DNA of 64,000 bases, from the sequence record PZ019085.1. The stretch is one strand, 5' to 3'. The DNA is from a phage. Position 1 is the stretch's first letter. The number at the start of each line of letters is the position of its first letter. The notes beneath the pieces were generated by a model. It had not been told where the DNA came from. It made no database searches and saw nothing but the letters and a program-made list of their open reading frames with translations. This document shows, piece by piece, positions 24,110 through 39,115 of the stretch. The position numbers and the translations under genes were made by a program.

Positions 24110-24184
24110 GGCCCTGTAGCTCAATGGGAGAGCTGTCAGCTCATAACTGATAGGTAGCTGGATCGAAACCAGCCAGGGTCACCA
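24110..24184 (+). tRNA. tRNA with CAU anticodon (Met or Ile2)
   Basis: hand-folded cloverleaf: acceptor GGCCCTG/CAGGGTC, D-arm GCTC-AATGGGA-GAGC, anticodon stem GTCAG/CTGAT with loop CTCATAA, T-arm GCTGG-ATCGAAA-CCAGC, encoded CCA. Confidence 0.75.
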
Positions 24185-24187
24185 ATC

Positions 24188-24264
<77 letters not shown>

Positions 24265-36182: not shown

Positions 36183-36545
36183 ATGAAAGCATATCAAATT
36201 CTTGAAGGTGCACATAAAGGCACTATTTATTTTGAAGACGGTACTCAAGCTCGGATTATCGTCTCTAAGACTTTTAAAGAAGACGCTATTGTAGACCCGG
36301 AAATTTTCTACGGTTTGAATGCCCGTGAAATTGAAATTGAACATCAACCTAAAGTTAAAATTGAAGGTGGTCAACATCTGAACGTTAACGTTCTGCGTCG
36401 CGAAACTCTGGAAGATGCAGTTAAGCATCCTGAAAAATATCCGCAGCTGACCATCCGCGTATCCGGTTATGCAGTTCGCTTTAACTCTCTGACTCCGGAA
36501 CAGCAGCGCGACGTTATCGCTCGTACCTTTACTGAGAGTCTATAA
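36183..36545 (+). CDS. autonomous glycyl radical cofactor (GrcA/YfiD-like; T4 Y06I equivalent)
   Basis: 120 aa; C-terminal 65 aa [59 protein letters not shown] carry the RVSGYAVRF glycyl-radical motif and match E. coli GrcA as recalled. Confidence 0.85.
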
Positions 36546-37768: not shown

Positions 37769-38311
37769 ATGAGAAAAGCACTACTCGCTGGTCTATTTGC
37801 TCTTTCGTTATCAGCACATAGCTCCGAGCATACTTTTAGTAATGTCCAACTCGATAACTTGAATTATGCTTATCAGTTTGGGGAACAGTTTTCTAAGGAT
37901 GGAAAATTTAAAACGCATGAAAATATGCATAAGAAAGGACTTGGATACATAATGGCCGCAATACTATGGCAGGAATCATCTGCCGGTATTAATCTTAAAG
38001 ATAAGAAAGGTCACCATGCGTATGGAATGTTCCAAAATTATCTACCAACAATGAGGGCAAGAATTAACCAGCTTGGTTATAATATGACTGACGCCCAAAT
38101 TAAGAAAATGCTATCTAAGCGGTCTAATTCAGCCAGATGGGCTTATATCGAATTTTCTTATTGGTTAAATATACATAATGGGGATATAAGAAAAGCTATA
38201 TCCTCATATAACGCGGGATGGAAGACAAGTGCTGGAAGTAAATATGCTTCTGAAGTCCTAGAAAAGGCCAATTACCTTAAATCAAATAAACTACTGGAAA
38301 TAAAAGAATGA
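37769..38311 (+). CDS. secreted lytic transglycosylase-like protein (SLT domain)
   Basis: 180 aa; signal peptide MRKALLAGLFALSLSAHS; SLT-like motifs WQESS, AYGMFQ, YNAG; position of T4 vs.1. Confidence 0.65.
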   Translation: MRKALLAGLFALSLSAHSSEHTFSNVQLDNLNYAYQFGEQFSKDGKFKTHENMHKKGLGYIMAAILWQESSAGINLKDKKGHHAYGMFQNYLPTMRARINQLGYNMTDAQIKKMLSKRSNSARWAYIEFSYWLNIHNGDIRKAISSYNAGWKTSAGSKYASEVLEKANYLKSNKLLEIKE

Positions 38312-38655
38312 CCAAAATGTTGGCTTTAATAGTTGGCTTGGTTTCATTTAACGCTCTTGCTAATACTACATATACTGATATAACGGAGTATACAAACAGA
38401 ACGGCGTCTGATTATTGTGGTCAAAGTCAAGAGTGTAAAGTAGATTTTTCACAAAAATTGTTATATGCGTATAAAGACGGAGAAAAAGATGGGGCGTCTA
38501 GTAGGTTCAAGGCGTCTACCTTAATTAAAAGATACTATAAAAAATGGCAAATATTAGAATGCTCGGTGGCGGAACCTAAAGATAAGGCAGCATGCAATTC
38601 TATGGTAGACCGTCTAGTTGACTCTTATAATAGAGGACTTGCAGCAAGTGATTAA
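38308..38655 (+). CDS. hypothetical secreted protein
   Basis: 115 aa; signal-peptide-like N-terminus MTKMLALIVGLVSFNALA; four Cys. Confidence 0.55.
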   Translation: MTKMLALIVGLVSFNALANTTYTDITEYTNRTASDYCGQSQECKVDFSQKLLYAYKDGEKDGASSRFKASTLIKRYYKKWQILECSVAEPKDKAACNSMVDRLVDSYNRGLAASD

Positions 38656-39115
38656 AAACTATATCAAGGGCGATATTGTCGCCCTGTTTTCTAAAGGTAA
38701 TAATATCGCTCATGGGTGTAATTGTTTTCATACAATGGGCGCCGGTGTGGCAGGACAATTAGCAAAGGCTTATCCAAAAATTCTGGAAGCTGATAAACTT
38801 CAAACCGAATTCGGAGACGAGTCTAAACTCGGGACTTATTCGGTTTATGAAAAATATTTTAAGACACATAAAGCTTATTGCTTTAATCTTTATACACAGT
38901 TTGAGCCGGGACCTAATTTTGAGTACTATGCTTTAATGAATTGTATAATAGAATTAAATGAATTCGGAAAAAATAAGATAACAAAGCCTGTAATTTATAT
39001 GCCAAGAATTGGTGCGGGTATTGGTGGCGGAAACTGGGATGTCATCGAAGAGATTTTAGATACGTATTCCACTAAACTAGAAATTGTGATTGTTGATTGG
39101 GAACCATTATTATGA
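38648..39115 (+). CDS. macrodomain protein (TARG1/DarG-like ADP-ribose hydrolase fold)
   Basis: 155 aa from GTG 38648 (SD AGAGGA; no in-frame ATG near the 5' end); motifs AHGCNCFHTMGAGVA and MPRIGAGIGGGNW parallel the TARG1 LAHCIS..MGAGIA and MPRIGCGLD motifs. Confidence 0.75.
   Translation: MIKNYIKGDIVALFSKGNNIAHGCNCFHTMGAGVAGQLAKAYPKILEADKLQTEFGDESKLGTYSVYEKYFKTHKAYCFNLYTQFEPGPNFEYYALMNCIIELNEFGKNKITKPVIYMPRIGAGIGGGNWDVIEEILDTYSTKLEIVIVDWEPLL

Follow-up and report, generated by a model that had tools for sequence, protein, structure and literature searches.

A T4-like phage gene between vs and tk.3 encodes an ALC1-like macrodomain with a predicted lysine-independent pocket against DarT2

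The window (the whole stretch of 64,000 nucleotides of phage DNA that was analysed) carries between vs and tk.3 a macrodomain gene which, as judged by sequence comparison, is the Mosigvirus ortholog of T4 tk.4 (adfM). Its product is likely to be an early-expressed stand-alone glycohydrolase, stripping the ADP-ribose installed by DarT2 from thymidines in phage single-stranded DNA by means of a pocket containing Asn25 and Gln84. A role against DarT was correctly proposed in the earlier note on this DNA, but it is already in the literature for the T4 ortholog. The lysine-less catalytic architecture, a collision in the naming of AdfM and an RNA hairpin embedded in the gene go beyond the known finding.

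The macrodomain gene, its start codon and its relatives

The phage is T4-like and comes closest, with 98-99% identity, to sequenced members of Mosigvirus (JN02, APCEc01 and others). The genes regB, vs.1 and vs lie upstream of the macrodomain gene and tk.3, tk.2 and tk downstream, all on its strand, and the order vs-tk.4-tk.3...tk is held in T4, APCEc01, SA79RD and others. By these shared neighbours the macrodomain gene corresponds in position to T4 tk.4 (NC_000866 60922..61389, 155 aa), for which the annotation reads 'phosphatase; contains A1pp phosphatase motif'. The following features were assigned at its 5' end.

38308..38655 (+): vs (valyl-tRNA synthetase modifier), the upstream gene, from the ORF and the annotation in relatives
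38633..38637 (+): Shine-Dalgarno-like GAGGA, 10 nt 5' of the GTG, read from the sequence
38648..39115 (+): macrodomain gene, ortholog of T4 tk.4/adfM, 155 aa, GTG start, TGA stop

The GTG at 38648 corresponds to the ATG of T4 tk.4 in a codon-for-codon alignment. The T4 start is directly preceded by an in-frame TAG and also has GAGGA upstream, and the N-terminus M-I-x-x-Y-(I/V) is kept in 12/12 phages (seven genera and two records without genus), all of which agrees with the GTG start that had been proposed from the letters alone. Of these 12 phages, those of the Mosigvirus group and Gelderlandvirus CGG4-1 start with GTG and the rest with ATG. The start at TTG 38618, giving the longest mechanical ORF (165 aa), was rejected on account of the T4 in-frame TAG and the common N-terminus of the relatives. 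The claim that the GTG lies inside the stop codon of the upstream gene did not hold, as the overlap of the two genes is 8 nt (GTGATTAA) and the GTG covers the last two sense codons of vs, 5' of its TAA at 38653-38655. In T4, the overlap is 4 nt (ATGA) with an ATG start. As the last 8 nt of vs overlap the macrodomain gene, translational coupling from vs to this gene is plausible.

The warning that automated callers may mis-start the gene is borne out by the GenBank record of JN02 (MT782071.1, 2936-3316), where the CDS begins at the internal ATG of 'MGAGVA' and 29 residues are lost, including the HGCN motif and the N-terminal strand. The full 155 aa are present in RefSeq APCEc01, which is annotated with the GTG start, and in T4. 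Shortened tk.4 homologs are found in the protein databases too, and the relatives are named phosphatase, macro domain protein, hypothetical protein or Poa1p-like. Many database records are labelled 'phosphatase' or 'hypothetical', or are cut back to the internal ATG because the start is GTG. That tk.4 contains a macro/A1pp domain was recognised already in 2006 (PMC1524935).

The protein shows 84% identity to T4 Tk.4 over 155/155 aa, with no gaps and 25 substitutions, and it agrees with T4 Tk.4 in lying between vs and tk.3, in its N-terminus and in every residue that is invariant in the family; the second loop reads GIGGGNW here and GIGKGNW in T4. At the nucleotide level the identity is 81%, with dS of 1.25 (near saturation), dN of 0.09 and dN/dS of 0.07. 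Hence, the gene is genuine and purifying selection on it is strong. In total, 354 homologs of the protein were found, and a recognisable copy of the gene is present at the DNA level in 1013 phage records.

Macrodomain fold and the architecture of the ADP-ribose pocket

The profile search against macrodomain families was significant. With the Pfam Macro model (PF01661) the score was 27.6 bits, the gathering cutoff being 22 bits, and the alignment spanned positions 2-117 of the 118 in the profile; PHROG 335 was matched with E=2e-66. An alignment of 110 family sequences (36-96% identity) served as input to AlphaFold2, and the resulting model is a confident macrodomain (pLDDT 96.3, pTM 0.91) with the three-layer alpha/beta fold. 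A Foldseek search of the PDB placed TARG1, Poa1p, DarG, BT1257 and SCO6735 in the first ranks, with TARG1 at the top (E=4.6e-10), and the family profile recognised the same set of structures by sequence with E values of 1e-17 to 1e-12 (TARG1 E=2.4e-16). Because the nearest structural and profile neighbours belong there, the protein is placed in the ALC1-like (TARG1/DarG/Poa1p/SCO6735) macrodomain class, and not in the MacroD, PARG or macroH2A types. The description of the protein as a TARG1/DarG-like macrodomain is therefore right as to the fold and the ALC1-like class, but the protein is not a member of either DarG or TARG1, the catalytic lysine being replaced by Gln84. The pocket was assigned as follows.

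38708..38752 (+): loop-1 motif AHGCNCFHTMGAGVA, residues 21-35, with the invariant Asn25 and the GxG phosphate-binding loop (family invariants; alignments with DarG, SCO6735, BT1257 and PhiKZ gp104)
38720-38722 (+): codon of Asn25, equivalent to DarG N22, SCO6735 N27 and PhiKZ AdfM N23
38885..38899 (+): N-L-Y-T-Q motif, residues 80-84 (HMM alignment with TARG1 and BT1257, hhalign with Mtb DarG and SCO6735, MAFFT)
38897-38899 (+): codon of Gln84, at the position of the catalytic lysine (TARG1 K84, DarG K80) and of Gln85 in SCO6735
38999..39037 (+): loop-2 motif MPRIGAGIGGGNW, residues 118-130, second ADP-ribose-binding loop, with Gly126 in place of TARG1 Asp125

The earlier note had read two motifs as parallels of the TARG1/DarG catalytic pocket. 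Both are indeed present and form the ADP-ribose-binding loops, but they are not the catalytic residues. The motifs nearest to loop 2 are LPRIGCGLAGGTW of SCO6735 and MPRIGCGLAGGKW of BT1257. Residues N25, N80, Y82, Q84, P119, G122 and G124 are invariant in 110/110 homologs, down to 36% identity. The residue equivalences were drawn from sequence and profile alignments, and in three independent ones (HMM, hhalign and a MAFFT alignment of nine sequences) the lysine of TARG1 and DarG faces Gln84. In the HMM alignment with TARG1, NlYtQ stands opposite YLITK, and in the hhalign alignment with Mycobacterium tuberculosis (Mtb) DarG (97.8%), NLYTQF stands opposite NFPTKK; the Mtb DarG sequence used was confirmed to be identical to PDB 5m3i.

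In case of human TARG1/OARD1 (4j5r), the loop motifs are similar to those of the phage protein, whereas K84 is replaced by Gln and D125 by Gly126, and the TARG1 residue facing Asn25 is Ser. In DarG (Mtb 5m3i, T. aquaticus 5m31/5m3e), Lys80 of the FPTK motif corresponds to Gln84. DarG further possesses a C-terminal toxin-binding domain and an adjacent darT gene, and the phage protein (155 aa, single domain) is without both. No DarT gene adjoins the macrodomain gene here, where the neighbours are vs and tk.3, and none was found beside three distant homologs. The NCBIfam DarG model (NF048014) gave 30.4 bits for the phage protein against a cutoff of 250, compared with 258 for the Mtb DarG macrodomain alone and 138 for PhiKZ gp104, and the PADLOC DarG model gave 31.8 bits for the phage protein. 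In Poa1p, Ser stands in place of Gln84. The non-catalytic ALC1 macrodomain shares the Gln but has Asp at the Asn25 position, and the retained Asn25 of the phage protein thus argues for catalytic activity.

The pocket resembles that of Streptomyces coelicolor SCO6735 (PDB 5e3b) and Bacteroides BT1257 (2afc/2fg1), which share the Gln at the position of the catalytic lysine; these are cellular proteins and not phage genes, with only about 25-30% identity to the phage protein. The Q85/N27 pair of SCO6735 corresponds to the Q84/N25 pair here, which is invariant in the 110 homologs. In hhalign, the family matched SCO6735 (98.5%, E=1.4e-15) better than DarG, pairing IAHGCNCF of the phage with IAHVCNDL and NLYTQ with NMIGQ. 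The SCO6735 sequence was taken from the PDB alignment with BT1257 as query, and when its chain numbers are offset by 20, V25, N27 and Q85 fall where they were published. Both TARG1 catalytic residues are missing in SCO6735, yet it cleaves ADP-ribosyl-thymidine and rescues E. coli from DarT (PMC9411070). The Q85A substitution inactivates SCO6735 and N27S nearly does so, and the mechanism put forward for it is water-mediated (PMC9411070). There are also differences. After Q84 the phage family has 5-6 residues fewer and is without the extended mobile loop of SCO6735, and it has the invariant Gly23 where SCO6735 has Val25 (Val/Ile25); both of these traits were described as SCO6735-specific. As the lysine of TARG1/DarG is an invariant Gln and TARG1 Asp125 is Gly in the phage family, the chemistry would be SCO6735-like rather than TARG1/DarG-like.

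PhiKZ gp104, which was independently named 'AdfM', is likewise a phage-encoded stand-alone macrodomain against DarTG2 with the conserved Asn (N23), and it removes DarT2-installed ADP-ribose in vitro (Cell Rep 2026, PMC13309987). When the published construct was translated, gp104 was seen to carry the lysine motif FPTK of the DarG type, whereas the T4-type protein is Gln-type. A BLASTP match between gp104 and the phage protein extends over 23 residues only, and hhalign gave 95.6%. Moreover, hydrolase activity has been shown in vitro for gp104, while the T4-type is known by genetics alone. The comparison indicates that T4-type Tk.4 and PhiKZ gp104 are different macrodomain lineages under the one name AdfM, and as the T4-type is without the catalytic lysine of DarG and TARG1, its chemistry should not be assumed.

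Probable counter-defence against DarTG2 and competing explanations

The function of the T4 ortholog has been addressed in a preprint of 20 November 2025 (bioRxiv 10.1101/2025.11.20.689424). In a transposon screen of T4 on DarTG2-expressing E. coli, tk.4 was the sole conditionally essential gene, and a clean tk.4 deletion made T4 sensitive to DarTG2. Similarity to Mtb DarG was noted there and tk.4 was named adfM (anti-DarT factor Macrodomain); enzymatic removal of ADP-ribose from DNA was said to be one that 'seems likely', on genetic evidence only (10.1101/2025.11.20.689424). The counter-defence against DarT suggested for the gene under study has thus been established genetically for an 84%-identical ortholog, the host-range phenotype having been measured in T4 itself and not in the present phage. 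It was known earlier that T4 without AdfA and AdfN still resists DarTG2, and a further factor had been predicted (PMC11825919). AdfN (T4 gp30.3, NADAR) and AdfA, the other anti-DarT factors of T-even phages, have folds unrelated to the macrodomain. AdfN, likewise an orphan enzyme of a type used as antitoxin, has guanosine-ADP-ribose (DarTG1) as its substrate and gives no protection from DarTG2 (PMC11825919). The gene belongs to the several layers of anti-DarT factors in T-even phages (AdfA, AdfN, AdfM), and it helps to foresee on which DarTG2-carrying E. coli a therapeutic T4-like phage will plate. In minimal medium, according to the same preprint, vs was the T4 gene with the strongest conditional essentiality, and the DarTG2 assays were also carried out in M9-glucose at 30 C (10.1101/2025.11.20.689424). 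Polar or coupled vs-tk.4 effects therefore deserve attention.

The host toxin DarT2 places ADP-ribose on thymidines of single-stranded phage DNA, and replication stalls. In the mechanism which we consider probable, the macrodomain, a single-domain protein produced ahead of replication from the operon-like block regB-vs.1-vs-tk.4-tk, would bind the ADP-ribose by two loops rich in glycine, at residues 21-35 and 118-130, and hydrolyse the bond between ribose and thymine, giving back normal DNA. Following the lysine-independent scheme of SCO6735, Asn25 would lock Gln84 in place at the distal ribose, and the reaction would be carried out by water where TARG1 and DarG use a lysine as nucleophile or base. 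Taken together with the genetics, the pocket leads us to infer that the protection is enzymatic and that catalysis proceeds by the SCO6735 scheme.

Protection without hydrolysis is conceivable, because the inactive variants SCO6735 Q85A, DarG K80A and TARG1 K84A retain their inhibition of DarT in vitro (PMC9411070). The protein would then act as a stoichiometric inhibitor that binds DarT2, or as a reader that binds ADP-ribosylated DNA. The missing catalytic lysine, the occurrence of Gln at this position in the non-catalytic ALC1 and the purely genetic nature of the T4 evidence are in line with such a role. However, Asn25 and Gln84, both needed for catalysis in SCO6735, are invariant, ALC1 has Asp at the Asn position, and the toxin-binding C-terminal domain of DarG is absent from the 155-aa protein. 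An early-made enzyme would also be the more economical answer to a catalytic toxin, and we regard a non-catalytic protection as unlikely.

The probability is smaller still that the true substrates are other ADP-ribose marks, such as those of Alt, ModA and ModB, protein Asp/Glu or RNA marks (e.g. of CmdT), with the effect on DarT2 being secondary. T-even phages do carry three ADP-ribosyltransferases, but the Alt and Mod enzymes target arginine, which is not known to serve macrodomains as a substrate. Nothing was found in support of the suggestion, made along with the counter-defence role, that the gene regulates the phage's own ADP-ribosyltransferases. TARG1 and SCO6735 act on proteins too (PMC9411070), and TARG1 is active on phosphate-linked RNA/DNA ADP-ribose (PMC11833690). 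On the same phosphate-linked substrates the Results and the Discussion of that paper disagree for SCO6735, while SCO6735 was inactive on a 2'-OH RNA substrate (PMC11833690). Against RNA marks of CmdT it also counts that CmdTAC strongly defends against wild-type T4, a tk.4 carrier (PMC11618068); Tk.4 is not mentioned in that paper or in the hydrolase-specificity papers. Moreover, tk.4 was the sole significant hit specifically on DarTG2 (10.1101/2025.11.20.689424), which implies that the reference T4 library did otherwise yield tk.4 mutants; explicit non-essentiality is given in the preprint for adfN and acb1 only (10.1101/2025.11.20.689424). It is highly improbable, finally, that the protein is a small-molecule enzyme clearing NAD-derived metabolites, either as a Poa1p-like ADP-ribose-1''-phosphate phosphatase or as an O-acetyl-ADP-ribose deacetylase. 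The legacy 'phosphatase' label, which would point that way, was carried over from the domain name, Poa1p differs at the Gln84 position as described above, and the sole known phenotype of an ortholog is DarTG2-specific. Such an activity would also not account for protection from a toxin that modifies DNA.

RNA hairpin, downstream junction and further observations in the window

A scan for terminator-like structures identified one RNA element within the 5' part of the macrodomain gene.

38667..38695 (+): hairpin AGGGCGAU-AUU-GUCGCCCU with the U-rich tail GUUUUCU, codons 7-16 (stem-loop in codons 7-13)

The hairpin begins 19 nt into the coding sequence and has an 8-bp stem and a 3-nt loop, with a folding energy of -13 kcal/mol and a z score of -3.2. 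The codons GGC, GTC and GCC used in it are each a minority choice in this window of 37.6% GC, and their joint frequency is 0.005. The stem is identical in T4 despite the gene-wide dS of 1.25. In the Erwinia phage Gravdalen, it is kept by two synonymous compensatory changes, one of which turns a G-C pair into A-U (AAG to AAA together with CTG to TTA) and the other a U.G pair into C-G. The hairpin is absent in relatives whose peptide departs from GD(I/L)VAL. Possible roles of this hairpin are those of a terminator or attenuator after vs, of a stabiliser of the mRNA end, or of an element of translational control.

On balance, we lean towards the view that two mechanistically different macrodomains have been recruited against DarT by chimalliviruses and by T-even phages, the PhiKZ AdfM being a lysine-type derivative of DarG and the T-even Tk.4 a lysine-less Asn/Gln-type, which would be a compact version of SCO6735/BT1257 without the mobile loop, water-mediated in its chemistry; its expression may also be gated by the embedded hairpin. 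Neither the mechanistic split of the two AdfM types nor the gating by the hairpin is stated in the literature found.

At the 3' end, the ATG of tk.3 is at 39112 and forms a 4-nt overlap (ATGA) with the TGA of the macrodomain gene, and the last 30 nt of this gene (39083-39115, +) are 100% identical to T4. This identity together with the overlap suggests a conserved coupling and ribosome-binding region at the junction with tk.3. Within the macrodomain gene, at about 38929-38954 (+), a site resembling the T4 middle promoters (MotA box TGCTTTA, 13 nt, TAGAAT) was observed; a MotA-type site is annotated at the equivalent place in SA79RD and is visible by eye in the window and in T4. This candidate middle promoter would drive tk.3-tk.2-tk independently of tk.4. 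The sigma-70 promoter scan returned 18 sites against 20 expected.

Upstream, at 36183-36545 (+), a 120-aa GrcA/YfiD-like autonomous glycyl-radical cofactor is encoded, which corresponds to T4 vs.6 and is annotated as GrcA in APCEc01. It shares the window with the region expected to carry the anaerobic ribonucleotide reductase genes nrdD/nrdG, which in APCEc01 are found some 15 kb further downstream than tk.4. T4 has eight tRNA genes, and in the present window only two, Met-CAT and Arg-TCT, were found by both ARAGORN and Rfam, at 24110-24264 (+).
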